From a phage, in assembly GCA_018509705.1 (NCBI GenBank), contig GCA_018509705.1_3630.1: a stretch of 64,000 nt of DNA, one strand, 5' to 3'. The translations under genes and the position numbers were made by a program. Positions within the stretch are counted from its first letter, which is position 1; every line of letters begins with the position of its first letter. This document shows, in pieces, positions 30,379 through 62,683 of this stretch. The notes under the pieces were generated by a model. It was not told the origin of the DNA, did no database searches, and was given only the letters and a program-made list of their open reading frames with translations.

Positions 30379-31467
30379 TTAGATAAAACGCTTGAACATA
30401 GAAGGTGATGAGATTGATGGAATCACACAAGGAAGTGCTACCTCCTCTTTCTCCAGGAAATTAATCGCAGAAGCTACGCAGTCGGCCCAGTCGTCTTTTC
30501 TGTTAAATGTTGATCTTTCCCCGTTGAATTTTTCAAGTTCAGTCAGAAATGCTTCCAGAGTATCAGGATGGAAACTGGATTTTACAATCCTCACCATTCC
30601 TTGTTGGGCAAGATTGGCAAAAGGTGAGAACCTTGTCAGTTTAGACTTGTTGGAAGGCATTGGGTCTTCTTCAACCCTGAACCCTTCGGCAAGCAAGGAT
30701 CTGGAGGAGGTTAAGAACTCACTCTTACCTGCCTGCCCTGGGTCCACAGAGAAGACGATTATGCAATCATCACCATCGAACTGCGCCTGTTTCCTGATGA
30801 TCACATCTCGTTCACCAGCCTTTTTACAGAACTTGCCTTCCAGACCTGTGGAATACCTCCCGTCATCCACGTTCTCAGGACAATAATCACCGGACAGGTA
30901 ATAAAAGCCGTCGCTATCTTTACTTACCTTAATACTGGCAGTAAAGTCAGGAAATTTATTACCGGAAGTTCTCTCGGTTCCTGCCTTATCCCATGCCCTG
31001 CAAGATACTGACCCAAGAGGTACTCTATCGGCATCACGAAGGAAAGATCTTTGAAAATAGTTTGCACCCTCAGGCTTTGCAAACCAGTTACCATGGAGAA
31101 GCTGAGCTTTTTCCAGCTCTGGTAGACCTTCGAGGAAAGCAAGGTATTCTGGGTTGTCTCTCAAACAGACAGGATTATCGAATATTGTTGCGCCTATGAA
31201 CGAGAATGACAACGGTCTTGGCTTGATCTCTACGCCAAGTCCGTTAACCGTGGTGTATTTCTCTATCAACTCTTCTTTAGAGTCTCCCCAGATAAATTCA
31301 CCGTCGCGTCGGATAAAATATCTTTTCTTACCGCATTTCTCCGGATCTGGATACCCTTCATCGTCCAACCACCATCTAACCAGTTTGGCAAGCATGTGTT
31401 CTGAATCGGGGTTACAGCTGATAACCATTCTTGATGGATACTTTGACGGAGATCGCAGACGAGACAT
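30379..31467 (-). CDS. terminase large subunit, C-terminal segment (putative exon 2; true 5' boundary unknown)
   Basis: 362-aa ORF that continues the ATPase/nuclease protein begun in 32381-32809; the track start is probably not the real exon boundary. Confidence 0.55.
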   Translation of the reverse strand: MSRLRSPSKYPSRMVISCNPDSEHMLAKLVRWWLDDEGYPDPEKCGKKRYFIRRDGEFIWGDSKEELIEKYTTVNGLGVEIKPRPLSFSFIGATIFDNPVCLRDNPEYLAFLEGLPELEKAQLLHGNWFAKPEGANYFQRSFLRDADRVPLGSVSCRAWDKAGTERTSGNKFPDFTASIKVSKDSDGFYYLSGDYCPENVDDGRYSTGLEGKFCKKAGERDVIIRKQAQFDGDDCIIVFSVDPGQAGKSEFLTSSRSLLAEGFRVEEDPMPSNKSKLTRFSPFANLAQQGMVRIVKSSFHPDTLEAFLTELEKFNGERSTFNRKDDWADCVASAINFLEKEEVALPCVIPSISSPSMFKRFI

Positions 31468-32380
31468 CAGATAGTCTATCTGCTCCCATTCGAACTGTGT
31501 CGTTTATGTTCGGGCAAGGTCGCTAGTCTTGCCCCGCCATTTTCAGGCAGCTGCATGTCTCCATGCAGACCAGACTATATCTTATGAATGTGCAAATACT
31601 CTGCCGCTCTAAGAATAGTTTCCTCATCCTCTTGGAAGAAACCTAAAGCTCTGTTGCATTTATCACAAAGCAACCCTCTTACAGCACCAGTTTTATGGTC
31701 ATGATCAACACAAAAGAAATCTCTGTACCCTTGCGTCCTATACTCATCAAGAGATATTCTACAAATGGCACACTTATGATCTTGATCTGAGAGTAGACGA
31801 TAGTATTCATCTTTTGTTATGTGAAATTTCTTCTCAATCTGATAAAACTTTTCACACATCTTACACCTGTTCGTAACCAGATATACTTTACCATAGTCAC
31901 GTTTTGTGTAAAAACTATCAGCGAGCATACTTTCATGACAAGATTTGCATTCAAAAAGTTCACCTTTCTTCAGCAAGTCTTGAATAAATAATGCTGCGTC
32001 ATCTCTCTTAACCATATTTTTGTTTCTACGAGATCCACCCTTCCTGTAGTACATATAGCATTCCTTGCATGTACCTGAGTATCCATCCTTGCTCTTAGAT
32101 GATAAAAAGAAATCATCAATAGGTAGAACTCTTTGGCAATCCATACATTTTTTAGTATTACACATTCACCCTCCCGTTTCGAATCGCTTGATTCTACGTC
32201 TTTCGACTAGTCGTTGAACGTTCATCCTCTCGGATGCTTCGCTGCGGATTATCTAAATTAACACACTGTTACCATACCTTCGATCTCTCTTCGAAGCCTC
32301 TATCATGTTACCATGACAGGTTGGTGGTGTCAATAATAAAGATTTCCCCGCAATTAGGGAGGTTTTACGAGAGCTACAAA
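31468..32380 (-). mobile_element. intervening sequence in the terminase large subunit gene (putative self-splicing intron) carrying an HNH endonuclease ORF
   Basis: Lies between the in-frame stop of the ATPase segment and the C-terminal segment; contains the 31575-32165 ORF; flanks are GC-richer and stem-forming; intron class not determined. Confidence 0.45.
31575..32165 (-). CDS. HNH / endonuclease VII-like homing endonuclease
   Basis: Cys-rich N-terminus and FFCVDHDHKTGAVRGLLCDKCN motif, as in T4 gp49-type HNH nucleases. Confidence 0.65.
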   Translation of the reverse strand: MCNTKKCMDCQRVLPIDDFFLSSKSKDGYSGTCKECYMYYRKGGSRRNKNMVKRDDAALFIQDLLKKGELFECKSCHESMLADSFYTKRDYGKVYLVTNRCKMCEKFYQIEKKFHITKDEYYRLLSDQDHKCAICRISLDEYRTQGYRDFFCVDHDHKTGAVRGLLCDKCNRALGFFQEDEETILRAAEYLHIHKI

Positions 32381-32809
32381 TTAACCCTCATCGAAGCAAA
32401 CCATGGTGTACTCAAGCCCTTGATGGTTAAGCTTATCTTGTACATACTCCATGTGACAGTATTTTACAACAGCTCCCTTTTTGCTTCTATCCCACTTGCC
32501 AGTGTTCGGATCAAACCGTGGAAAAATGAACTTATGATCCTTCTCTCTGAACTTTGGCTTAATGTTTTCAGGCAGATCACTGTAAATAGCTACTGCTTTA
32601 GGCCATAGTCCACCCTCACCTTCCAACTGTGGGGTTGTTCTTCGGAACATAACCACAGAGCTGTGGGGGTCATCAATAATTTTAAGTGGCATCAACTGCA
32701 AGAGGAACGACTTGCCAGACCCTGCGGCACCGCCGATTACCAAAATATCTGCATCGTTTTCTAGGATCATCTTCTGCTTTTCAGAACACGGTCCGTAAAT
32801 CTTAGACAT
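32381..32809 (-). CDS. terminase large subunit, N-terminal ATPase segment (putative exon 1)
   Basis: Walker A ILVIGGAAGSGKSFLL and Walker B-like MVCFDEG immediately before the stop. Confidence 0.7.
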   Translation of the reverse strand: MSKIYGPCSEKQKMILENDADILVIGGAAGSGKSFLLQLMPLKIIDDPHSSVVMFRRTTPQLEGEGGLWPKAVAIYSDLPENIKPKFREKDHKFIFPRFDPNTGKWDRSKKGAVVKYCHMEYVQDKLNHQGLEYTMVCFDEG

Positions 32810-33912: not shown

Positions 33913-33989
33913 TGGTCTCCACGGAGTGATTCGAACACTCGACCTCCTGATCCCAAATCAGGCGCTCTACCAAGCTGAGCTACGCGGAG
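33913..33989 (-). tRNA. tRNA-Pro (anticodon UGG)
   Basis: Hand-folded cloverleaf: acceptor CTCCGCG, D-loop TAGCTCAG, anticodon loop TTTGGGA, T-loop GGTTCGAATC, encoded CCA. Confidence 0.8.
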
Positions 33990-34000
33990 TATTTATTATT

Positions 34001-34075
34001 TGGTGGCCCTGGGTGGAATTGAACCACCGTCTGGCGATTATGAGTCGCTTGCTTGAACCTTCCAGCTACAGGGCC
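34001..34075 (-). tRNA. tRNA with CAU anticodon (Met, or Ile2 lysidine-type)
   Basis: Acceptor GGCCCTG/CAGGGCC, anticodon arm GCGA-CTCATAA-TCGC, T-loop TTCAATT, encoded CCA. Confidence 0.75.
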
Positions 34076-34076
34076 A

Positions 34077-34152
34077 TGGTGCTGATGGCAGGACTTGAAC
34101 CTGCAACCTATTGATTACAAATCAATTGCACTACCAATTGTGCTACATCAGC
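34077..34152 (-). tRNA. tRNA-Thr (anticodon UGU)
   Basis: Acceptor GCTGATG/CATCAGC, D-stem GCAC/GTGC, anticodon arm ATTGA-TTTGTAA-TCAAT, T-arm GCAGG-TTCAAGT-CCTGC, CCA. Confidence 0.8.
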
Positions 34153-34157
34153 AAAAA

Positions 34158-34256
34158 GGTGCTAGGTGATGGAATCGAACCACCTATGTATTCAACGACT
34201 ACCTCGTCTATTTTCAGGATTAAAAATCCTCGCCCTTGCCAAAGGGCTTACCTAGC
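34158..34256 (-). tRNA. atypical tRNA-like gene (about 99 nt; isotype unresolved)
   Basis: Good acceptor (GCTAGGT/ACCTAGC) and T-arm (GGTGG-TTCGATT-CCATC), but about 24 extra nt between D and T arms; anticodon arm ambiguous (AGGAT-TTTTA-ATCCT or 4-bp stem with UUU). Confidence 0.3.
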
Positions 34257-34354
34257 TCAGTATGTTGACCATGTTGCTAGTCGGCGATGACGACTGTAAC
34301 ATTTGATAATCCGGTTCTGCTTCCGGCTTTCGCTTAATTACAAGGTCAACAATA

Positions 34355-34445
34355 TGGCTGAGGGTAATGGAATCGAACCATCATCAAGTCATCCTCAACG
34401 GGACGGTTTTCAAGACCGCTTGAGCACCATTGCTCCCTACCCTCA
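34355..34445 (-). tRNA. tRNA-Ser (anticodon UGA), long variable arm
   Basis: Acceptor TGAGGGT/ACCCTCA, anticodon arm GCGGT-CTTGAAA-ACCGT, long variable arm, T-loop TTCGATT, CCA. Confidence 0.7.
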
Positions 34446-34559
34446 TTTATAAACAATACTGATAATGACACTGATTTTCGAGCAGTTAGTGACTAGTATA
34501 AACGACGATAAATATCAATGCCATTATCTGTATGATTTATGCATTTAAAACTATAAATT

Positions 34560-34646
34560 TGGTGGGGAGTGGTGGAGTCGAACCACCCGAGTCGCAATGA
34601 CAATAGATTTACAGTCTACACCGCTACCCCTACGGGATAACTCCCC
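34560..34646 (-). tRNA. tRNA-Tyr (anticodon GUA), long variable arm
   Basis: Acceptor GGGGAGT/ACTCCCC, anticodon arm GTAGA-CTGTAAA-TCTAT, T-arm GGTGG-TTCGACT-CCACC, CCA. Confidence 0.7.
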
Positions 34647-34650
34647 AATT

Positions 34651-34725
34651 TGGCACCCCGTACTGGACTCGAACCAGTGTCAACGGCTTAGAAGGCCGCT
34701 GCTTTATCCACTAAGCTAACAGGGC
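34651..34725 (-). tRNA. tRNA-Arg (anticodon UCU)
   Basis: Acceptor GCCCTGT (two G-U pairs), D-stem GCTT/AAGC, anticodon arm GCGGC-CTTCTAA-GCCGT, T-arm ACTGG-TTCGAGT-CCAGT, CCA. Confidence 0.75.
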
Positions 34726-39981: not shown

Positions 39982-40743
39982 ATGCGACGACTGATTGTTA
40001 TCTCCGGTGCTGGTTTGAGTGCTGAATCTGGTATTCCCACTTTCCGATCTGGTAGCACTGCAATGTGGGAGAATTTCAGCATCGATGAGGTGTGCAACAT
40101 CCACACCTTTGCCAAGAACTACTATAAGGTGCATGACTTTTACAATGCACGTCGTGTAGCTTTAGGCAGTGTTGAGCCTAACCTTGCACATCTTCGGATC
40201 GCTGAGTGGTATTCCCGCTGGTCTGGTCGTGTGATCAACCTTACCACCAATGTAGATGATTTGCTGGAGCGTGCTGGTGTAAAACATGAAGATATTTTAC
40301 ATGTCCACGGGTATTTGCCAGAAATAGTCTATGAGGACGATGAAGGAAGTGACGTCATTAAGGACATTGGATACTCTGAGGTAGACGCAGGAAAGTATAC
40401 CTGGGTTAAGCCTAATGTGGTGTTCTTCGGAGAAGTAGCTCCGAAGTATACAGACATGTATGACCTGTTGACTTCTCTTACGAGCAATGATATGGTTATC
40501 CTTGTAGGGTGCTCCAACACAGTTATCAATTTTAACTGGGAGCTATTCCCTGCCTGCAATAAGGGAACCAAACTACTGATCGTTAATAAATACGACTCAC
40601 AGCATCTAGAGGAGAATGGCATTTCACGTAGTGATATTTACCAGTATGAGGATCGCGGCATCCCAGTTTGGTTTAACGGTGCGGTTGATGCCTTCTCTGA
40701 TAAAACATTCATTGAGACTGTAGAAAACTTTATGGAACTTTAA
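39982..40743 (+). CDS. Sir2-family NAD-dependent deacylase / ADP-ribosyltransferase-like protein
   Basis: N-terminal GAGLSAESGIPTFRSG motif and HVHG catalytic-His motif; Zn-ribbon cysteines not evident. Confidence 0.65.
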   Translation: MRRLIVISGAGLSAESGIPTFRSGSTAMWENFSIDEVCNIHTFAKNYYKVHDFYNARRVALGSVEPNLAHLRIAEWYSRWSGRVINLTTNVDDLLERAGVKHEDILHVHGYLPEIVYEDDEGSDVIKDIGYSEVDAGKYTWVKPNVVFFGEVAPKYTDMYDLLTSLTSNDMVILVGCSNTVINFNWELFPACNKGTKLLIVNKYDSQHLEENGISRSDIYQYEDRGIPVWFNGAVDAFSDKTFIETVENFMEL

Positions 40744-40756
40744 AAGGAGACCTTTA

Positions 40757-41470
40757 ATGCTGAATACTAAATTAATTGACAACCTGGAAAAACTATCCCA
40801 ACCTGAAAACTACCTTTGGTCTGCCAACTGGGTGGAAAACTGGAACCGTGTGGCAGCTAAAGTGAAAAAATCATACACACCATTCGAATTACAGCTTAGC
40901 TTCATTGAGGAAGAGTTCAATGAAGTTTTGGAAGAGCTGGAGAAAGGTGATGGTGGAGATCACCTGCTAAAAGAGGCCTGCGATCTTCACGTTGTCACAA
41001 GTTATGCAGCTTATCTTGTTAATGACAATCACGAAAAGTGGTCAAACCTGTTTGATAATCCACGAGGTCTTAAGTTCAAGATCGGTGAGTTCTATGACAC
41101 ACTGATCGCTGCGAAAAACACATCCAAGCAAAGAGCGTCAGCTTACCGTTTAGCGGAGTTGTCAACAGCTTTGCTGTTCCAGCTTCGCGGCGATGTGTGC
41201 GGGATGATGCGTAAGGTTCTCAAATCGAATGACAGCAAGTTTGCACGGGTCAACCATCTACGGTATTCACACGGTGCCAGTGCAGATATGCCTGCTGAAC
41301 AACTCATCGAGTTGGAGATTAAAGATCTTGAGCGACGCTTTGATGGTCGATATGAAGGTTTTGTTGCTAAGGAAGAATTCTACAACGGTAATAAAGTTAT
41401 CATATTCCTCGACAGTAAAGGTAAGATTATGAAGCCTTCAAGCTTCAAGGATGTAACAGAATATATTTAA
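40757..41470 (+). CDS. hypothetical protein, possible MazG-like nucleotide pyrophosphohydrolase domain
   Basis: Glu-rich segment SFIEEEFNEVLEELEKGD...LKEACDL resembles all-alpha NTP pyrophosphatase metal-binding motifs; weak. Confidence 0.3.
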   Translation: MLNTKLIDNLEKLSQPENYLWSANWVENWNRVAAKVKKSYTPFELQLSFIEEEFNEVLEELEKGDGGDHLLKEACDLHVVTSYAAYLVNDNHEKWSNLFDNPRGLKFKIGEFYDTLIAAKNTSKQRASAYRLAELSTALLFQLRGDVCGMMRKVLKSNDSKFARVNHLRYSHGASADMPAEQLIELEIKDLERRFDGRYEGFVAKEEFYNGNKVIIFLDSKGKIMKPSSFKDVTEYI

Positions 41471-41843: not shown

Positions 41844-42099
41844 TCTTGCTAAACCTGTAGAAGCACACCAGTTTGACGGAAGCTCTTCATCAGTATCTGA
41901 TCTGCAACGGTGGATTGATACAGGTGTGTTTACATCGTCACCTGTTCGGACCAGAGATCTTCGTCGTATGTGTGAGCTTGTAGAGCCGTTTGGTAACCTA
42001 GTCTTGTACCAGGGTGATTGGCTTGTTGATTTTATGGGTGACTGGTTGGTAATGAGTAAAGAAGAGATGTTTAAAATTTTTAAGGAAGAGGTAGAGTAA
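41830..42099 (+). CDS. hypothetical protein
   Basis: ORF track; coupled to neighbours. Confidence 0.35.
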   Translation: MPLFNLAKPVEAHQFDGSSSSVSDLQRWIDTGVFTSSPVRTRDLRRMCELVEPFGNLVLYQGDWLVDFMGDWLVMSKEEMFKIFKEEVE

Positions 42100-43364
42100 T
42101 GCATCAATTCAAAACAACACTTTATGCTCGCAATAAAGACGGGTCCATCCAGATGTGGAAAGTAGATACAAGCGGCAACGAGGTTATTGTTGTGTTCGGC
42201 AGGGTTGGTGGCGCTGTACAATCAAAAACCACAAAATGTGAAGCCAAAAACATCGGGCGATCCAACGAAACTACAGCAGAAGAACAAGCTGTTTTAGAGG
42301 CGCAGTCTAAATGGGAAAAGCAAGTCCGGCTGGGTTACAAAGAAAATGTCGAAGACCTTGAGGCCATTGACATTTCACCTATGCTGGCGCAAGATGCTTC
42401 GAAAAAACCACACGCTATTGTGTATCCATGCCACCTGCAACACAAACTTGACGGGAACCGTTGCTTTGTCAAATTCGTAGACGGTGTACCTAAATTCATC
42501 TCTCGCGGTAACAAAGTGTATGAGCCGAAAGGTAACATCCTCCGTGAGCTACAAGACCTGCATGAAGAAACAGGCTTTGATGAATTTGATGGGGAGTTCT
42601 ACATTCACGGTTTACCGTTGCAGAAAATAACCTCCCTCGTTAAGAAATGGCGTAGTCTGGAAGACATTGAGAAAGAAATTGATAAGGATTTCATGGCAGA
42701 CATAAAACGCCGTGAGAAAGCGATCAAGGCCGGAGAGGAGACATGGAAAGACTTCAACAAGGTTGATCATCCGGTTTATGAAGAACCTGTCCGTGATTCT
42801 GATCGGTATGGAGGTTACTGCTCTTATGACCTGAAACTGATGGTGTTCGATGTTCCTGATTGCATCCATCGCTGGGAAGATCGGGCCACAAATCTTCAGG
42901 AAGTTATTGATTATTGTGAAGTTAACCATCTCACAAACGTCGAGGGTGTTCCTTTCAAGATCGCCTACAACGAGGAAGAGGTTCGCAACTCCATCGGACA
43001 GTACATGCAGGAAGGTTATGAAGGATCTATTATTCGTAACTTCTGTGGCACCTACGAATACGGTCAACGCTCTACTGATCTGCTCAAGTGGAAACTGTTC
43101 ACCGATGTTGAAGCAAAAGTGATCGGTGTTGAAAAAGATAAAAACGGGGAAGGTGTTCTTATCTGCGAAGAGAAAGATGGGACACAATGCAAATGCAAAA
43201 TGAAAGGCACTTTTGCCGTAAGGAACTACGAAAAATGCTGCTCATATGTTGGCAAATTTATCACGATAAAATTCCAACAGCGTACGGTGGACGGTGTGCC
43301 TCAATTCCCTGTGGGTATCGCATTCCGCAATCTTAATCCAGAAACTTGGGAGGTGCTGGAATAA
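42099..43364 (+). CDS. ATP-dependent DNA ligase
   Basis: Adenylation motif I PCHLQHKLDGNRCF (KxDGxR) and further nucleotidyltransferase motifs; 421 aa. Confidence 0.7.
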   Translation: MHQFKTTLYARNKDGSIQMWKVDTSGNEVIVVFGRVGGAVQSKTTKCEAKNIGRSNETTAEEQAVLEAQSKWEKQVRLGYKENVEDLEAIDISPMLAQDASKKPHAIVYPCHLQHKLDGNRCFVKFVDGVPKFISRGNKVYEPKGNILRELQDLHEETGFDEFDGEFYIHGLPLQKITSLVKKWRSLEDIEKEIDKDFMADIKRREKAIKAGEETWKDFNKVDHPVYEEPVRDSDRYGGYCSYDLKLMVFDVPDCIHRWEDRATNLQEVIDYCEVNHLTNVEGVPFKIAYNEEEVRNSIGQYMQEGYEGSIIRNFCGTYEYGQRSTDLLKWKLFTDVEAKVIGVEKDKNGEGVLICEEKDGTQCKCKMKGTFAVRNYEKCCSYVGKFITIKFQQRTVDGVPQFPVGIAFRNLNPETWEVLE

Positions 43365-43487: not shown

Positions 43488-43976
43488 ATGAAACTTGATA
43501 AAAATGTTCAACGAAAAGCTTTCTTGGATATGATCGCATATTCGGAAGGAACAGATAATGGTAGACAACCTACCAAGGATCGGGGGTACGATGTCATAGT
43601 CGGCGGCAAGCTGTTCAGCGATTACAGCAAGCATCCCGGTGTTTACGTTAAGCTAAATGCTAAACTTACCTCCTCCGCTGCTGGGCGTTACCAGGTTTTG
43701 GAGAAGTTTGCTAAACACTACATGAAACAGTTAGGATTACCAGATTTTGGCCCTGCCAGTCAGGACAAGATTGCGTTGCAACTGATCCGTGAGTGCAAGG
43801 CTCTCGCCGACATTGATGAAGGGCGTATTCATCAGGCCATTTATAAATGCCGCAGCCGCTGGGCAAGCTTCCCACCACCGCCAGGGGCTGGAAAGCTGTA
43901 CAATCAGCGAGCAGAAAGTATAGACAAGATGCTGGAGATCTTTAAGAGGGCAGGTGGAGTTGTTACAGATGAGTAA
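43488..43976 (+). CDS. endolysin, lambda R-type lytic transglycosylase
   Basis: N-terminus QRKAFLDMIAYSEGTDNGRQPTKDRGYDVIVGG closely parallels the lambda R N-terminus recalled from memory. Confidence 0.8.
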   Translation: MKLDKNVQRKAFLDMIAYSEGTDNGRQPTKDRGYDVIVGGKLFSDYSKHPGVYVKLNAKLTSSAAGRYQVLEKFAKHYMKQLGLPDFGPASQDKIALQLIRECKALADIDEGRIHQAIYKCRSRWASFPPPPGAGKLYNQRAESIDKMLEIFKRAGGVVTDE

Positions 43977-44649
43977 CGGGATTGACTGGTGGAGTGTCTT
44001 TAGATACGATACAGGCACTGGAAGGTTGTTTTGGAAGTCCCCACCAAAAAACAAACCTCAACTAATGGGAAAGGAGGCTGGATGTACTAACAACGGGTAC
44101 AGGGATATAGTCTATCGTGGCGTGCATTACTACAGGCATAGATTGGTGTGGGAGATGCATTATGGACCAATCCCAGAAGGGTACGAAGTTGATCACATAA
44201 AGCCACTTTTCTATTCCGACGGTGTTGCGGATGATAGGGTAGAAAACCTACAACTGTTAACACCAGAAGAAAATGCAAAAAAGGCGGCAGATGACGGATG
44301 CCTGGCACGCAAGATACCTAAATCCAATACTGGACATTTGGGTGTATATTTTCATGCTAGATCTGGAAGGTATGCTGCTTTTGGTAAGGTAGGTCATTAC
44401 TATAAGAAAGACCTAGGAGAATACGATACCTTAGAAGAGGCCATTGCTGCTCAAAAGTCTTTTGAAAGTGGCACGTTTGTCAGGGAATATCGTGGACAGC
44501 CTTTAGGGAGGGATAAATCTAGAGGTGTCAGATTTGAAGCAGATAGGGGCAAATGGAAAGTAACTTTCAGAGGAAAAACGCTAGGCAGGTTTGACACCAA
44601 AGAGTCTGCTGAAGCGTGTTACGCAAAGGCTCTTACTGAAAGCTTGTAA
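43969..44649 (+). CDS. HNH homing endonuclease with AP2-like DNA-binding domain
   Basis: HNH_3-type core (YRHRLVWEMHYGPIPEGYEVDHIKP...ENLQLLTPEEN) then AP2-like segment; start placed at the ATG overlapping the endolysin stop. Confidence 0.6.
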   Translation: MSNGIDWWSVFRYDTGTGRLFWKSPPKNKPQLMGKEAGCTNNGYRDIVYRGVHYYRHRLVWEMHYGPIPEGYEVDHIKPLFYSDGVADDRVENLQLLTPEENAKKAADDGCLARKIPKSNTGHLGVYFHARSGRYAAFGKVGHYYKKDLGEYDTLEEAIAAQKSFESGTFVREYRGQPLGRDKSRGVRFEADRGKWKVTFRGKTLGRFDTKESAEACYAKALTESL

Positions 44650-44717
44650 CAGTATCATTGACATAACCACACGGACGTGGTATTGTCACCTCATAAAATG
44701 TTTGAGAGGGTTTAACC

Positions 44718-44924
44718 ATGAAAGATTTTCTGTTGGCAATTTTGTTCATGGCGGCATGTCTGGCCTGTGGTGTAGTGTTTGCAGGTGAAACAGCGTATCT
44801 TGTCGATGTATATCGGGACAATGGTAAACGTATTTGCCTTTATGAGACAAGCCAAGGTGAGCTCTACGAACTTGTGAAACAAGGAGAGGCAGGTTCCTGC
44901 CCTCGTACCCATTTCTTTGAATGA
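44718..44924 (+). CDS. small secreted or lipoprotein-like protein (68 aa)
   Basis: N-terminal hydrophobic signal-like segment with Cys (LLAILFMAACLACGVVFAG). Confidence 0.3.
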   Translation: MKDFLLAILFMAACLACGVVFAGETAYLVDVYRDNGKRICLYETSQGELYELVKQGEAGSCPRTHFFE

Positions 44925-44933
44925 GGAGGATAC

Positions 44934-45398
44934 GTGGAAGACGGACGTTTAATGAAGTCTGAACGCAGGCTTATTGTGCAACTGATCCCAGAAACAGCTT
45001 GGTATAATAACCTCCGAAACGCTGTAAAGAAGAGTGAGTGGGATAAGATCCGCAAGAAGTGCTATAGAGAAGCCAACTACACCTGTGAGGTGTGCGGCGG
45101 TAAAGGCAGCAAACACCCAGTGGAGTGTCATGAACTTTACACTTTCGAAGAGGGAGTGATCCGGCTTGTCGGACTGATAGCGTTGTGCCCAGATTGTCAC
45201 ACATCGGTGCATCCTGGGTTAGCAAATATTCGTGGAAAGTATGCTCAGGCAGTTAATCAGTTGGCTAAGGTGAATAAGATCACCAGAGGTATGGCAGAGG
45301 CGTATTACCGAGACTGCTTTGCAGAGTGGCGCGAGCTTAGTAAAGTTCCAGAATGGAAGACTGACTTTTCGTGGATAGAGGATTACCTTGATGGCTAA
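44934..45398 (+). CDS. hypothetical Cys/His-rich protein (possible zinc-binding nuclease)
   Basis: CEVCGG...HPVECHELY...ALCPDCHTSVH cluster. Confidence 0.3.
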   Translation: MEDGRLMKSERRLIVQLIPETAWYNNLRNAVKKSEWDKIRKKCYREANYTCEVCGGKGSKHPVECHELYTFEEGVIRLVGLIALCPDCHTSVHPGLANIRGKYAQAVNQLAKVNKITRGMAEAYYRDCFAEWRELSKVPEWKTDFSWIEDYLDG

Positions 45399-58265: not shown

Positions 58266-59125
58266 AAGTTGTAAAACGGGACGGTAGAGAAGAGTTCTAT
58301 AACGGAATTAAGGTGATCAAGGCGGCAGAGTCCGCCTTACTTGAGTCTGGACATACTGAAGAAGAAGCTTACCGGATCGCCTGCGCGGTTAATGAAGTTG
58401 TTGCTAACAATCTACCAACCGACCAGTGCACGATCTCTGTAAAAAATATCCATATCCTTGTTGAAGACGCTCTTATGGATATGGGTTTAAAATGTGCAGC
58501 CAGAGAATACATCCAGTATAGGCAGACAAGAGATAATAACAGAGAGGCAGGTGGAAAACTGCTTGCAGATATTAGTGGCTTCTTGGATCGCACTTGTGAT
58601 GAATTTACAAAAGAAAACGCAAATAAGCCTACCAATCATGTACACACTCATCGTGACCTGCTTGCAGGCATTCTTAGCAAACACCTTGCATCAACACAGA
58701 TCCTGCCAGACCGTGTCTCTGAAGAGCACAATAAAGGCTTCATCCATGTGCATGATCTTGACTACTTGATCAGTCCGTTAACAAACTGTTGTTTGGTAAA
58801 TTATCCAGATATGCTGGAAAACGGATTCAACATTGGTAACGCTCATGTCAGTAAGCCGAAGTCAATAGGGGTTGCAACAACAATCCTTAGCCAAATCTCT
58901 AGTGCGGTAGCTAGTGCTCAATATGGTGGTCAGACTATGAGCCATATTGATCATTATCTGGCACAGTATGCTGAAGCAACCTATGAGAAGAACCTTAAAT
59001 TTTGCCAGGAACATTGGTTGCCAGATGCTGAGACTGTTGCAATGCAAATGACAGATAAAGACGTATTTGACAGCATGCAGACTTTGCTCTATCAAATCAA
59101 TACGTTAACTTCTGTCAACGGTTAA
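58262..59125 (+). CDS. nrdD: anaerobic ribonucleotide reductase, N-terminal segment (putative exon 1)
   Basis: ATP-cone-like KVVKRDGREEFYNGIKV; ORF ends at a stop entering a structured non-coding stretch; true 3' boundary unknown. Confidence 0.7.
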   Translation: MKVVKRDGREEFYNGIKVIKAAESALLESGHTEEEAYRIACAVNEVVANNLPTDQCTISVKNIHILVEDALMDMGLKCAAREYIQYRQTRDNNREAGGKLLADISGFLDRTCDEFTKENANKPTNHVHTHRDLLAGILSKHLASTQILPDRVSEEHNKGFIHVHDLDYLISPLTNCCLVNYPDMLENGFNIGNAHVSKPKSIGVATTILSQISSAVASAQYGGQTMSHIDHYLAQYAEATYEKNLKFCQEHWLPDAETVAMQMTDKDVFDSMQTLLYQINTLTSVNG

Positions 59126-59433
59126 CAAACTGGCCGTTTTAAAACTCTGCTAACCTCAGTATGAGGGGTCAGCTGATCGCTGGCTAACGGGGAACGCTAA
59201 GGCGAAAGCTATGCCAATCCCGTGACTAGCTTCACAAGGAGTGAGGCGGTTGTAACGACTAACCTTTTGGTGTAGGGATTATGGAAGATTCCGAAACGCA
59301 GAGGTCTGATTAAGAATCACACGGTGTGATTTCAGGCAAGAGATAGTCTGGCCTTGTGGAAACATAAGGGTGGGGACCGCAAACCCCTTTTATCACATTA
59401 AGTTTAGGTCTGGACACCTCAGTATTTGGTAGA
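59126..59433 (+). mobile_element. intervening sequence 1 in nrdD (putative self-splicing intron, no ORF)
   Basis: About 300 nt without an ORF, locally GC-richer with many complementary segments, between two nrdD-like segments. Confidence 0.45.
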
Positions 59434-59688
59434 ATGATTACCAAAAACTACTTGAAAGTCCACAAAATGGGTCTTGGTGAAGAACGTATCACACCTGTGT
59501 TCCCTAAAGTGCTGTTCTTCCTAGAAGAGGGTGTCAACATGAACCCTGGAGATCCTAACTATGATTTGAAACGATTAGCTTTGGAATGCTCTGCAGAGCG
59601 GATTTATCCTGACTTTGTTTCTGTTCCACTAAATCGTAAAGTGACAGGATCGACAGATGGCAAAGTAACGAGCATGGGTAAACTATAA
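59434..59688 (+). CDS. nrdD: anaerobic ribonucleotide reductase, middle segment (putative exon 2; boundaries approximate)
   Basis: 84-aa ORF between the two intervening sequences; assignment by context. Confidence 0.45.
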   Translation: MITKNYLKVHKMGLGEERITPVFPKVLFFLEEGVNMNPGDPNYDLKRLALECSAERIYPDFVSVPLNRKVTGSTDGKVTSMGKL

Positions 59689-60411
59689 CTGCTCATGTAA
59701 AATCTATCTAAACGGGGAAACTCCAGAACGGACAATCCCGTGCTAAACGTAACAGAACTCCTGACCAAGAGGAGTCCTGAAATGAGAAAACAAATTCGTG
59801 ATTTTGAAGGTTATGAAATTGACGAGATGGGCAATGTTTATTGCACCCGCTACGAAAATGAAAGAATTATTCATTCGTGGGAAGAGATAAACACAGGTTA
59901 CCGTCTTGTTAGGATACGCAAGAACAAAAAGACTGTTTGCCTAAGGGTTCACAGACTTGTTGCTGAATCGTTCTTACCAAATCCAGACAATTTACCCTAT
60001 GTTAAGCACAAAGGGGACAACAGGAAAGATAACAGTGTATACAACCTTGAGTGGGGAGCTTGCCCAGACAATACGCAAGAAGGATACAACAACAACTGTT
60101 ATGCTTTTTACACAAAATGCCACGGTGTGAAAGCCACCAACAAATTAACTGGTGAGGTTTTCCACTTTAAAAGTCTGAGATGTTGTGCTGATGTTTTAGG
60201 AGTGGATAGAAAAAGAATATCTGCTATCCTGAAACGTGGTGCGCCTAATAACTATGATTACGAGTTCTGTTACGAAATGCCTAACGACTAACCGTGATGA
60301 ATGTAGCGGTGTAGGGTGTAAGCCGATGACACTCGAAATGGTAGACACACTAAGTGTGAAGATATAGTCTGATCTGCATGGGAACATGCAGCAGCACGTA
60401 AAGGTGCGGGG
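59689..60411 (+). mobile_element. intervening sequence 2 in nrdD (putative intron) carrying an HNH endonuclease ORF
   Basis: Contains ORF 59740-60291 plus a structured 3' tail; the nrdD frame resumes downstream. Confidence 0.45.
59740..60291 (+). CDS. intron-encoded HNH homing endonuclease
   Basis: HNH_3-like core CLRVHRLVAESFLPNP...NLEWGAC. Confidence 0.55.
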   Translation: MLNVTELLTKRSPEMRKQIRDFEGYEIDEMGNVYCTRYENERIIHSWEEINTGYRLVRIRKNKKTVCLRVHRLVAESFLPNPDNLPYVKHKGDNRKDNSVYNLEWGACPDNTQEGYNNNCYAFYTKCHGVKATNKLTGEVFHFKSLRCCADVLGVDRKRISAILKRGAPNNYDYEFCYEMPND

Positions 60412-61404
60412 GTGGACTTGCGAACCACCCTGAACATAATGTGTAGAAGTTTCTTATCGAAATATAGCGACCCTGTAACAGGCGAGGAGAAATACCTTGG
60501 CAGATTTAACTTAGGCGTTGTTAGCCTTAACCTGCCAATGATTGCGGCAAAAGCTAAAACGGAAGGTGTTGATTTCTTTGCAGTTCTTGACGAATACCTG
60601 GATCTTGCATACGAGGCTCACCTTGTAAGGGTTAACCGTCTAAAAGGAACAAAGGCAGGGCAGAACCCTATCATGTGGTGTGAAGGCGCTCTTGCTCGCC
60701 TGGATCCTGAAGAGAGTATTGATAAACTCTTCTATGACGGGTACGCTTCCATCAGTATTGGGTATATTGGTGTGTATGAAACCTGTCAGATTTTGGGCAG
60801 GGAGGGTGACAAGGCTTTAGCTCTTGGAATACTACAGCACATGAGAGATGCTTGTGAGCGATACAAGAAGGAAAGTAGACTAGCGTTTAGCTTGTACGGC
60901 ACTCCTTCTGAGAGTCTATGCTATAAAGCTGCAACCTGTCTGGATCGTGAATATCCTGAAGTGTTGAAGCACGAGCATGAATATCTCACCAACAGTTTCC
61001 ATCAGCCAGTATGGATCAATAGCTCTCCTTTTGATAAGTGGGAGTATGAAGAAGGTTTTGCTATGATATCCTCTGGTGGCAACATCGGATACGTAGAGAC
61101 ACCAAATCTGAAAAACAACTTAGATGCTTTGGAAGCTCTTGTTGATTTCGGATATAAACACATTATGTATTTTGGTATCAACCAGCCTGTGGATAAATGT
61201 CTTAAGTGTGGTTTCTCTGGTGAGTTCAGTGCAACAGCTAAAGGGTTCTGCTGCCCTGCGTGCGGATGCCACGATGAACAATATATCTCAGTGATCCGAA
61301 GAGTGTCTGGATACCTTTCCAGTCCTAACTCCCGTCCTTACAATAAAGGTAAGCAAGCGGAAGTTATAGAACGGGTTAAGCACTACGGAAGTTGTGGTTG
61401 CTGA
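60412..61404 (+). CDS. nrdD: anaerobic ribonucleotide reductase, C-terminal segment (putative exon 3; track start is not the true boundary)
   Basis: CRSFL and GRFNLGVVSLNLPMIA, C-terminal Cys cluster CLKCG...CPACGC and glycyl-radical-like RRVSGYLS. Confidence 0.7.
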   Translation: MDLRTTLNIMCRSFLSKYSDPVTGEEKYLGRFNLGVVSLNLPMIAAKAKTEGVDFFAVLDEYLDLAYEAHLVRVNRLKGTKAGQNPIMWCEGALARLDPEESIDKLFYDGYASISIGYIGVYETCQILGREGDKALALGILQHMRDACERYKKESRLAFSLYGTPSESLCYKAATCLDREYPEVLKHEHEYLTNSFHQPVWINSSPFDKWEYEEGFAMISSGGNIGYVETPNLKNNLDALEALVDFGYKHIMYFGINQPVDKCLKCGFSGEFSATAKGFCCPACGCHDEQYISVIRRVSGYLSSPNSRPYNKGKQAEVIERVKHYGSCGC

Positions 61405-61470
61405 TACTTGACAAAAGCCACAAGGATGTGGCACCCTTAGTTCAAAGACGAGAACTAAGAGGATTCAGCA

Positions 61471-62631
61471 GTGAGAAAACTTACAACCGAAGATTTTATA
61501 GAGGGGGCGAAAGCAGTTCATGGTGATAAATATGATTATTCCAAAGTCAAATATGTGGGTGCACACACCAAGATTGTAATTATATGCCCTGAGCATGGAG
61601 AATTTAAGAAAACTCTTGGAGATCACCTCCGTAAAAAACAGGGTTGCCCAAAATGTCAGATTGAAGCAGAAAGAGCGGCTTCTGCTGAAAAATTTAAAGC
61701 GGAGGCCGAGGCTAAGTATAATTATAAATATGATTACTCTAAGGTAGAGTATGTAAATGCTAAAACTAAAGTTGTGATTGTTTGTCCTGTTCACGGCGAG
61801 TTTGAGCAAAAGCCTGATAACCATCTCCGCGAGGGGGGTTGCCGTAAGTGTGGAGGAACTGAGAGAAAGACTACTGAAGAGTGGATCGCTGAGGCAAAAG
61901 CGCTTCATGGCGATAAGTATGATTACTCTCTTGTAAATTATAAAACCGGTAATGATAAAGTGGAGATAATCTGTAATACATGTGGTGCTCACTTCCCACA
62001 AAGACCTCATGACCATGCACCAAGTGGAAAAGGTTGCCCCGAGTGCGGGAAGAAGAAGGTGGCCGAGGTTAGTAGGAAGACGCAGAGAAAGAAAGCATCT
62101 GAGGTAGCTAAAAGGTTTGAGGCAAGAGCCAGAGCTATCCATAAAGATAAATACGATTATTCCAGGGTGGAATATGTTAATAGGGAGACAGAGGTCACTA
62201 TCATCTGTCCGATTCACGGGGAGTTCACACAAAAACCGTTTGTCCACATCAACCAAAAAGCTGGCTGTCAAAAATGTGCTAAAGTCGGCTTCTTATCTCA
62301 TGAACATGGTAGCCTTTATATCATGGTTGACGATCTGGAAGTACCAACTATGATGAAAATTGGTGTGAGTGTCCGGGTAGATGAACGAAGAAAAGATGTG
62401 TTAAAAAGAGCTAAAAAAGCTGGTGCTAGATTCTCTGATCTACATGTTATAAAAACTTGGGAAGGAACAACAGACGACATGCAAACTTTAGAAAAAGCTA
62501 TGCACCAAGCCTTGAGCCAATACAAAATCAACTTCACAGAGAAGTTTGATGGCTGTCGAGAGTTCTTCTACTACAGACCGGAGGTGTTCAGCATAGTGGA
62601 AGCAGCGTATAAAGAGATCTGCGGTAAATGA
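61471..62631 (+). CDS. repeat protein: four tandem Cys/His zinc-ribbon-like repeats plus C-terminal GIY-YIG-like (T5orf172-type) domain; putative free-standing homing endonuclease
   Basis: Four repeats of about 45 aa (GDKYDYS.V.Y...V.I.CP.HGEF...P..H...GC.KC), visible at DNA level; C-terminal SLYIMVDD...MMKIGVS...RRKDVLKR. Confidence 0.4.
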   Translation: MRKLTTEDFIEGAKAVHGDKYDYSKVKYVGAHTKIVIICPEHGEFKKTLGDHLRKKQGCPKCQIEAERAASAEKFKAEAEAKYNYKYDYSKVEYVNAKTKVVIVCPVHGEFEQKPDNHLREGGCRKCGGTERKTTEEWIAEAKALHGDKYDYSLVNYKTGNDKVEIICNTCGAHFPQRPHDHAPSGKGCPECGKKKVAEVSRKTQRKKASEVAKRFEARARAIHKDKYDYSRVEYVNRETEVTIICPIHGEFTQKPFVHINQKAGCQKCAKVGFLSHEHGSLYIMVDDLEVPTMMKIGVSVRVDERRKDVLKRAKKAGARFSDLHVIKTWEGTTDDMQTLEKAMHQALSQYKINFTEKFDGCREFFYYRPEVFSIVEAAYKEICGK

Positions 62632-62683
62632 TCGTAGAAAGATACACACATCTTAAACATGCTATAAACTAAGGAGGTACAGT

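Follow-up and report, generated by a model that had tools for sequence, protein, structure and literature searches.

As judged from its sequence and its distribution among related phages, the gene that follows the endolysin gene in an rV5-like E. coli phage (genus Vequintavirus) is in all likelihood a free-standing homing endonuclease gene of the HNH-AP2 class. The phage is represented here by a single stretch of 64,000 nucleotides (the window), in which the gene occupies positions 43969-44649. As in homing genes, it is an independent reading frame, is present in some relatives and absent from others, is accompanied by a co-transferred flank, and consists of DNA that is younger than its flanks. 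Over a 5.2-kb stretch around the gene, the window aligned to rV5 (DQ832317) with 98.4% identity and 85% of the length covered. Most close relatives have no gene between the endolysin stop codon and the next promoter, where the window has the nuclease gene. Upstream of the endolysin gene lies a gene for an ATP-dependent DNA ligase, and homologues of rV5 ORF90 and ORF91 are found downstream (Table 1). A first-pass annotation of this DNA had described an HNH-AP2 reading frame overlapping the end of the endolysin gene, and this description was borne out by the Pfam HNH_3 match (E=1.9e-13), by the phrog_90 assignment of the neighbouring gene and by the overlap of the two reading frames.

Table 1. 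Features of the nuclease locus, and further nuclease genes and introns, in the window.
Feature	Position	Strand	Details
Endolysin gene	43488..43976	+	162 aa, lambda-R/GH104-like; phrog_90 8e-52
Endolysin 3' tract linked to the nuclease gene (putative co-conversion tract)	43829..43976	+	minimal linked part 43857-43976
Shine-Dalgarno-like GGTGGAG	43953..43959	+	within the endolysin coding sequence, ends 9 nt 5' of ATG 43969; read from the letters
Predicted free-standing homing endonuclease gene	43969..44649	+	226 aa: N-terminal beta-hairpin region, HNH domain, two AP2-like repeats
HNH (His-Me finger) nuclease core	44128..44277	+	aa 54-103; D75-H76, N93, N102; Pfam HNH_3
AP2-like repeat 1	44341..44469	+	aa ~125-167; AF2 model: E126-129, E134-141, E145-152, H155-167
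AP2-like repeat 2	44521..44643	+	aa ~185-225; AF2 model: E187-190, E195-200, E203-208, H211-225
Right junction	44650..44657	+	from 44654 (ATCATTGACA...) the sequence directly past the endolysin stop in empty-site phages
Sigma-70-type promoter (P90 of rV5) of the next gene	44658..44686	+	TTGACA, 17-nt spacer, TATTGT, extended TG; promoter scan and rV5 annotation 'P90'
Downstream gene, rV5 ORF90 homologue	44718..44924	+	68-aa putative membrane protein; right-hand homologous flank; 98% identical to rV5
Fifth HNH-like gene	44934-45398		phrog_5200 1e-72
Group I intron in the large terminase gene (terL)	31501-32383		883 nt; Rfam Intron_gpI 47.3 bits, E=3e-10, gathering score 50
Endonuclease_7-type gene	31575-32165	-	Endonuclease_7 2e-21 and Lar-like zinc ribbon; in the terL intron
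Second nrdD insertion	59123-59379		257 nt, no ORF; group I model 29 bits
nrdD insertion holding 59740-60291	59680-60441		762 nt; group I 3' core, 35 bits, E=1.6e-6
HNH gene with I-HmuI-type NUMOD-like region	59740-60291	+	phrog_59 3e-32; Pfam HNH_3 weak, E=0.001, below cut-off
T5orf172 gene	61471-62631	+	DUF723, DUF4379 zinc fingers, T5orf172/MUG113; free-standing between nrdD and nrdG

The ORF call had placed the start of this plus-strand gene at a GTG codon at 43954, with the end at 44649, and the first-pass annotation used the same start. This start was not supported by comparison with homologues, in which the GTG is not conserved: two homologues that have diverged by 20% (on contigs L012 and L013) read GCG at this position. 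The gene almost certainly begins at ATG 43969, judging from conservation among homologues. This ATG overlaps the endolysin stop codon by 8 nt (ATGAGTAA), both the ATG and the overlap are kept in these diverged homologues (ATGGTTAA, ATGGATGA), and GenBank annotations of homologues begin at the same ATG. The GGTGGAG motif at 43953-43959, inside the endolysin coding sequence, is the putative ribosome-binding site of the nuclease gene. A promoter and terminator scan detected no promoter-like or terminator-like site between the endolysin and nuclease genes. Taken with the motif and the overlap, this makes co-transcription with the endolysin gene and translational coupling the likeliest mode of expression, which we infer rather than observe.

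The description of the gene as free-standing also held, the gene being a separate reading frame between an intact endolysin reading frame and the next promoter. No intron was matched at its position by Rfam at gathering thresholds, the more sensitive scan in E-value mode having covered other parts of the window. The right junction was read straight from the sequences, the MAFFT alignment having put the right flank of empty-site phages against the 5' end of the nuclease gene.

The encoded protein was characterized by profile and structure comparison. Pfam HNH_3 matched aa 54-103 with 50.2 bits against a cut-off of 24.8, and the PHROG family phrog_99, 'HNH endonuclease', matched at 1e-48. The catalytic D-H...N...N pattern of the HNH core is present: across 10 homologues, with identities down to 26%, D75, H76 and N102 are invariant and N93 is conserved in at least 90%. 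An AlphaFold model built from a 9-sequence alignment (mean pLDDT 77.9) puts a strand at 73-76 and a helix at 99-109, in the region of the catalytic motif. Together, these matches establish the protein as a member of the HNH / His-Me finger family whose predicted catalytic residues are intact. A single nuclease protein found no match in the PDB with phmmer, and a family profile was needed. With the profile, the N-terminal part matched I-HmuI (1u3e) at 9.7e-6 over 63 positions, while the C-terminal part matched the AP2 domain of WRI1 (WRINKLED1) at 2.2e-8, followed by ERF096 (0.003) and TEM1 (0.025).

The C-terminal half fell short of the curated Pfam AP2 threshold (26.8 bits vs 33.3, E=6.4e-6), with the best stretch at aa 183-217, in the second repeat. 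In the AlphaFold model, a unit of three strands plus a helix occurs twice, at aa 126-167 and 187-225. The top matches of this model in a Foldseek search of the PDB were WRI1 (probability 1.00), I-HmuI (0.98) and AtERF1, the last (1gcc) superposing on repeat 2 with an rmsd of 2.3 A over 44 columns at 34% identity. Foldseek gave these matches weak E-values (2e-3 and 9e-3), as expected of short domains joined by flexible linkers. An earlier model predicted from the single sequence had a pLDDT of 49 and was discarded; its Foldseek search returned noise. Based on the profile matches and the agreement of the AlphaFold model and Foldseek, the architecture is that of an I-HmuI-like HNH domain followed by two AP2-like repeats. 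By profile and fold similarity the C-terminal units are AP2-type repeats, predicted to bind DNA.

AP2 domains are transcription factors in plants and apicomplexans, and the -35 box of P90 begins 9 nt after the end of the nuclease gene. These two facts would suit a DNA-binding regulator whose AP2 repeats bind near P90 and whose HNH domain is vestigial. We consider such a role extremely unlikely, given that the catalytic residues are retained in homologues down to 26% identity and that most relatives do without the gene. The nuclease gene was intact in 10/10 copies compared, with dN/dS of 0.09-0.26, indicating that the protein is under purifying selection. Homologues are widespread: tblastn detected them in >1,400 phage records, although the protein homology search gave only 8 relatives. 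A scan of IMG/VR returned distant relatives only (30-49% identity) and added no genomic context.

The first-pass annotation had proposed comparison with relatives lacking the insertion, and relatives proved to vary at this site, which supports its reading of the gene as a selfish endonuclease. In most of about 120 vequintavirus records the site is empty. In rV5, naam and ECP26 the endolysin stop codon runs directly into P90, followed in rV5 by ORF90. The nuclease gene occupies exactly the same site in 11 GenBank phage records with 96-97% DNA identity: FV3 (two records), nom, nimi, isim, RudolfGeigy, YN3 and rV5_ev147/156/158/168. The names of the 'rV5_ev' phages suggest evolved derivatives of rV5; a literature search on them found no paper. 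Another 20 records, including DrSchubert, carry a different HNH-AP2-like gene at this site. It encodes 253 aa, its product is 31% identical to the window protein, and the endolysin allele beside it is diverged over most of its length. A third HNH gene was found in six records, including EduardKellenberger and HMD-6, and its product is 30% identical to the window protein, AP2 repeats included. This gene lies upstream of the endolysin gene, overlaps its start, and is accompanied by yet another endolysin allele.

Wherever the nuclease gene is present, the endolysin gene has a particular 3' end, and the two are strictly linked. The window and rV5 endolysin genes share 98.5% nucleotide identity over 43488-43828 and 60-68% over 43829-43976, where there are also two indels. 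At >=95% identity, this 3' tract was found in exactly the 11 phage records that have the nuclease gene, and the tail does not differ among carriers. The window endolysin is, by alignment, a chimera: residues 1 to ~114 belong to the 'type 1' allele of rV5 and the C-terminal ~47 residues to a 'type 2' allele.

Two more distant full-length nuclease homologues (81% and 79% identity) on the uncultured-phage contigs L012, L013 and L014 suggest where the tail came from. In all three contigs the nuclease homologue overlaps the stop codon of a type-2 endolysin gene by 8 nt. The C-terminus of this endolysin (FPPPPGAGKLY.QR...AGGVVVDG) is of the window type, and its N-terminal three quarters are unlike rV5. 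L012 has about 71% DNA identity to vequintaviruses; against it, the body of the window endolysin gene is 65.5% identical in DNA, the tail 77.7%, the nuclease gene 80% and ORF90 72.6%. The identity of the tail thus follows that of the nuclease gene and not that of the endolysin body, from which we conclude that the tail travels with the nuclease gene and that the endolysin is chimeric. The donor of the nuclease gene was probably a lineage with a type-2 endolysin.

These data also bear on the direction of change. If the gene were ancestral and had been deleted in most vequintaviruses, its patchy distribution would reflect loss and not gain. Its presence in only 11 of about 120 records would suit such a history, and degeneration and loss belong to the usual life cycle of homing genes. 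Still, we regard ancestral loss as very unlikely: the tail of carriers groups with type-2 endolysins of other lineages, the nuclease gene is more conserved than its flanks, and no decayed copy was seen among the copies compared. Deletion is ruled out as a general explanation because it cannot create the complete type-1 C-terminus of empty-site genomes.

Comparison of close relatives recorded recent movement of the gene. The exact 226-aa protein was found on 15 public contigs. Among these, L027 matches the window without a difference throughout the compared region, and the others carry an alternative ligase allele ~600 bp upstream; the same nuclease protein is thus found with either ligase allele, the two alleles having 64% identity. 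Between the window and one such contig, L026, there were 0 differences over 43857-44686, a block of 830 bp that takes in the distal part of the tail, the whole gene and the 37 bp that follow it. On either side of this block the sequences are 5.5-7% diverged, with 26 differences/369 bp on the left and 13/238 bp on the right, and ~50 differences would be expected in the block at the flank rate. In the window, nom and L025 the left breakpoint falls at ~43829. It lies ~30 bp further right, at ~43857, in L026, which has rV5-type bases up to 43856, whereas the stretch 43829-43841 is a mosaic in FV3 and YN3. At least 3 different left breakpoints thus exist among these genomes, with most carriers sharing one. 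The identical block and the differing breakpoints imply several independent recombination events that ended close to the gene, and this comparison of aligned genomes demonstrates that the gene moved recently, with short flanks, between diverged vequintavirus genomes. That most carriers share a left breakpoint would suit a gene that invaded once and was then passed on by ordinary recombination.

Movement of this kind could in principle be passive, with ordinary homologous recombination shuffling the gene and the tail as a cassette and the nuclease having a role other than its own spread, such as cutting competitor genomes without homing or DNA metabolism. Vequintaviruses are mosaic in any case, as seen in their two sharp-edged ligase alleles, so general recombination could move the cassette without the nuclease. 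The adjoining ligase gene shows such a sharp allelic replacement (64% identity) in genomes that have no directly adjacent nuclease gene, and purifying selection indicates that the protein is useful without proving homing. Nonetheless, the identical block shared with L026 is centred on the nuclease gene, with flanks of only ~110 bp and ~37 bp. In addition, three HNH-AP2 genes cluster on the two sides of one endolysin gene, each with its own allele, an arrangement that would be unlikely by chance and is what targeted breaks would give. Weighing both sides, we find passive shuffling improbable.

Under homing, the events at this locus might proceed as follows. The nuclease would be made from the endolysin transcript by translational coupling, through the ATGAGTAA overlap and the GGTGGAG 9 nt upstream. 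During a mixed infection, the AP2 repeats would recognize the 3' end of the type-1 endolysin gene, or the junction of stop codon and promoter, in the empty-site phage, and the nuclease would nick or cut the empty-site allele at the recognized sequence. Repair from the carrier genome would then copy the gene along with a variable length of the carrier endolysin 3' end. The tail of the carriers, ~35-40% different and with two indels, would protect them from cutting. The gene probably entered Vequintavirus from the type-2-endolysin lineage, in which homologues keep the same overlapping arrangement. The 3' tract is accordingly named here as the predicted carrier-immunity region, and its counterpart in empty-site phages as the predicted home of the cleavage target. 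Carriers and non-carriers have the same right flank, so the target cannot lie entirely within it. The prediction is precise, placing the target in the last ~120 bp of the rV5-type endolysin gene or at the junction with P90.

A broader reading takes the vequintavirus endolysin gene itself to be a contested site. At least three distant HNH-AP2 homing genes (~30% identity), two downstream and one upstream, would each be paired with an 'immune' endolysin allele; their competition would yield functional chimeric endolysins, and homing nucleases, not selection on lysis, would drive endolysin diversification. We put this forward tentatively, as a possibility that we hold to be somewhat less probable than its opposite. 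On the practical side, the locus is a warning that gene trees of endolysin, terminase and nrd genes in vequintaviruses are shaped by nuclease-driven exchange.

Neither the class nor the gene is new. HNH nucleases with a C-terminal AP2 domain ('IPA-HNH') are a described class of homing endonuclease genes (Barth et al. 2023, PMC10448857); the same paper cites an earlier description of the HNH-AP2 class in protists, cyanobacteria and phages and reports that nuclease genes mark recombination boundaries in phages. As in IPA-HNH, the window gene encodes an HNH_3-type core followed by AP2, is free-standing, has an essential phage gene as its neighbour and marks a boundary of genetic exchange. The likeness of the window protein to IPA-HNH of ICP1 is one of domain order and setting, and the number of AP2-like repeats is two in the window protein and its close homologues vs one in the distant homologues found here. 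The HNH core, including the preceding beta-strand region, resembles that of I-HmuI from Bacillus phage SPO1 (PDB 1u3e), but I-HmuI is intron-encoded and its C-terminal DNA-binding part is not AP2.

I-HmuI nicks one strand. T4-type Seg and Mob nucleases are encoded by free-standing genes between conserved genes; they cut within the neighbouring gene of the allele that lacks them, and their genes spread with co-conversion of flanking markers. The linked tract and variable breakpoints at the window locus resemble this behaviour, a likeness drawn from comparative data only; unlike the window protein, most T4 examples belong to the GIY-YIG family and have different DNA-binding modules.

The same gene is annotated in GenBank, at the same site and with the 8-nt overlap, as FV3_00083 ('putative HNH endonuclease'), nom_81 and bas52_0205 ('putative homing endonuclease', RudolfGeigy). 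The window copy differs from these carriers by a 3-bp indel, encoding 226 aa vs 227 aa, and lies beside the rV5-type ligase allele, a pairing absent from the GenBank carriers and present in L027. Beyond annotation, the comparative evidence shows that the endolysin is chimeric and its tail strictly linked to the gene, that homologues lie in a donor-type arrangement, that 830 bp are identical in L026 and that three rival occupants surround one endolysin gene. It does not introduce a new principle or a new kind of system, and provides a well-resolved natural example of the spread of a free-standing homing gene.

The locus is one of several of its kind in the window. Three further candidates, at 31575, 59740 and 61471, had been listed in the first pass as HNH- or GIY-YIG-like, and all three proved to be real nuclease genes, matching Endonuclease_7, phrog_59 and T5orf172/MUG113, respectively. 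All three vary among relatives. Two are intron-encoded (in terL and nrdD), and the T5orf172 gene is free-standing. With four variable nuclease genes and one ORF-less intron within 64 kb, the genome is, as had been suggested, heavily colonised. Another genus of the subfamily is likewise reported to have abundant homing genes and spliced introns (PMC7344957).

At gathering thresholds, Rfam detected no introns in the window; the terL and nrdD introns came from the scan in E-value mode and were confirmed by intron-less relatives. The terL gene of FV3 is uninterrupted; once joined, the window terL exons stay in frame, and synonymous changes lie to either side of the junction. Published work describes introns in terL of rV5 (PMC3606486). 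Phage MiataMamis has neither nrdD insertion, and its NrdD can be aligned over all three exons of the window gene. The combination of DUF723/DUF4379 with a T5orf172-type domain corresponds to an architecture described for T5orf172 homing genes (PMC10448857). Lastly, a fifth HNH-like gene, which was not in the earlier list, was detected at 44934-45398.

Nuclease genes related to the HNH-AP2 gene also flank the endolysin gene in two other phages, EduardKellenberger and DrSchubert, at different positions. Each is ~30% identical to the HNH-AP2 gene of the window and accompanies its own endolysin allele; in DrSchubert, the spacer that separates it from the endolysin gene contains a hairpin. Allelic variation was also found in the DNA ligase gene, which occurs as two alleles with ~64% DNA identity to each other, an rV5-type of 1266 bp, carried by the window, and a naam-type of 1284 bp. 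Identity between the two types is again >90% within ~100 bp of the end of the ligase gene, and some relatives carry a third HNH gene directly 3' of it. The Sir2-family gene is followed by a nucleotide pyrophosphohydrolase-like gene (40757-41470).

Features of the window and of two related phages (coordinates in the sequence named)
Feature	Sequence	Position	Strand	Remarks
Large terminase (terL) exons	window	32384-32809 and 30379-31500	-	either side of the intron
Group I intron, 883 nt	window	31501-32383	-	interrupts terL; Rfam, 47.3 bits
Endonuclease_7-type HNH gene	window	31575-32165	-	ORF within terL intron
Five-tRNA gene cluster	window	33916-34725	-	Rfam tRNA, 35-80 bits
Sir2-family gene, phage-encoded	window	39982-40743	+	Pfam SIR2, 3e-27
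DNA ligase gene, rV5-type allele	window	42099-43340	+	
HNH-like gene, rV5 ORF91 homologue	window	44934-45398	+	phrog_5200, 1e-72
nrdD insertion 1, group-I-like, 257 nt	window	59123-59379	+	ORF-less
nrdD insertion 2, group-I-like, 762 nt	window	59680-60441	+	contains the next gene
HNH / I-HmuI-NUMOD gene	window	59740-60291	+	inside nrdD insertion 2
T5orf172/MUG113 gene, free-standing, 386 aa	window	61471-62631 (insertion 61434-62671)	+	between nrdD and nrdG
HNH-AP2-like gene, EduardKellenberger	L017	1446-2162		upstream of endolysin gene, overlaps its start
HNH-AP2-like gene, DrSchubert	L002	2541-3302		downstream of endolysin gene, 54-nt spacer

The terL intron scores slightly below the Rfam gathering score of 50 for the group I model and was therefore overlooked by the default scan. 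It is absent from FV3 and many relatives, and rV5 carries a different insert at the same position. The nuclease encoded within it begins with a Lar-like zinc ribbon. The tRNA cluster separates the terminase/spanin region from the genes that come after it.

Two group-I-like insertions, both putative introns, split nrdD into three exons. At both, T is the last base of the 5' exon and G the last base of the insert, and phage MiataMamis has neither. The insertion between nrdD and nrdG is likewise missing from many relatives; the protein that it encodes combines repeated DUF723/DUF4379 zinc fingers with a C-terminal, GIY-YIG-related T5orf172/MUG113 domain.

Unlike the other nuclease genes of the window, the HNH-like gene two genes 3' of the HNH-AP2 gene (43969-44649) is kept at the same position in all relatives examined, and may therefore be non-mobile. 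This gene is not among the candidates named in the note.

Separately, ~20 GenBank records (MG0656xx) are titled 'Campylobacter phage' with Campylobacter jejuni given as host. In all regions tested they share 97-99% identity with E. coli vequintaviruses, and these host labels look doubtful.
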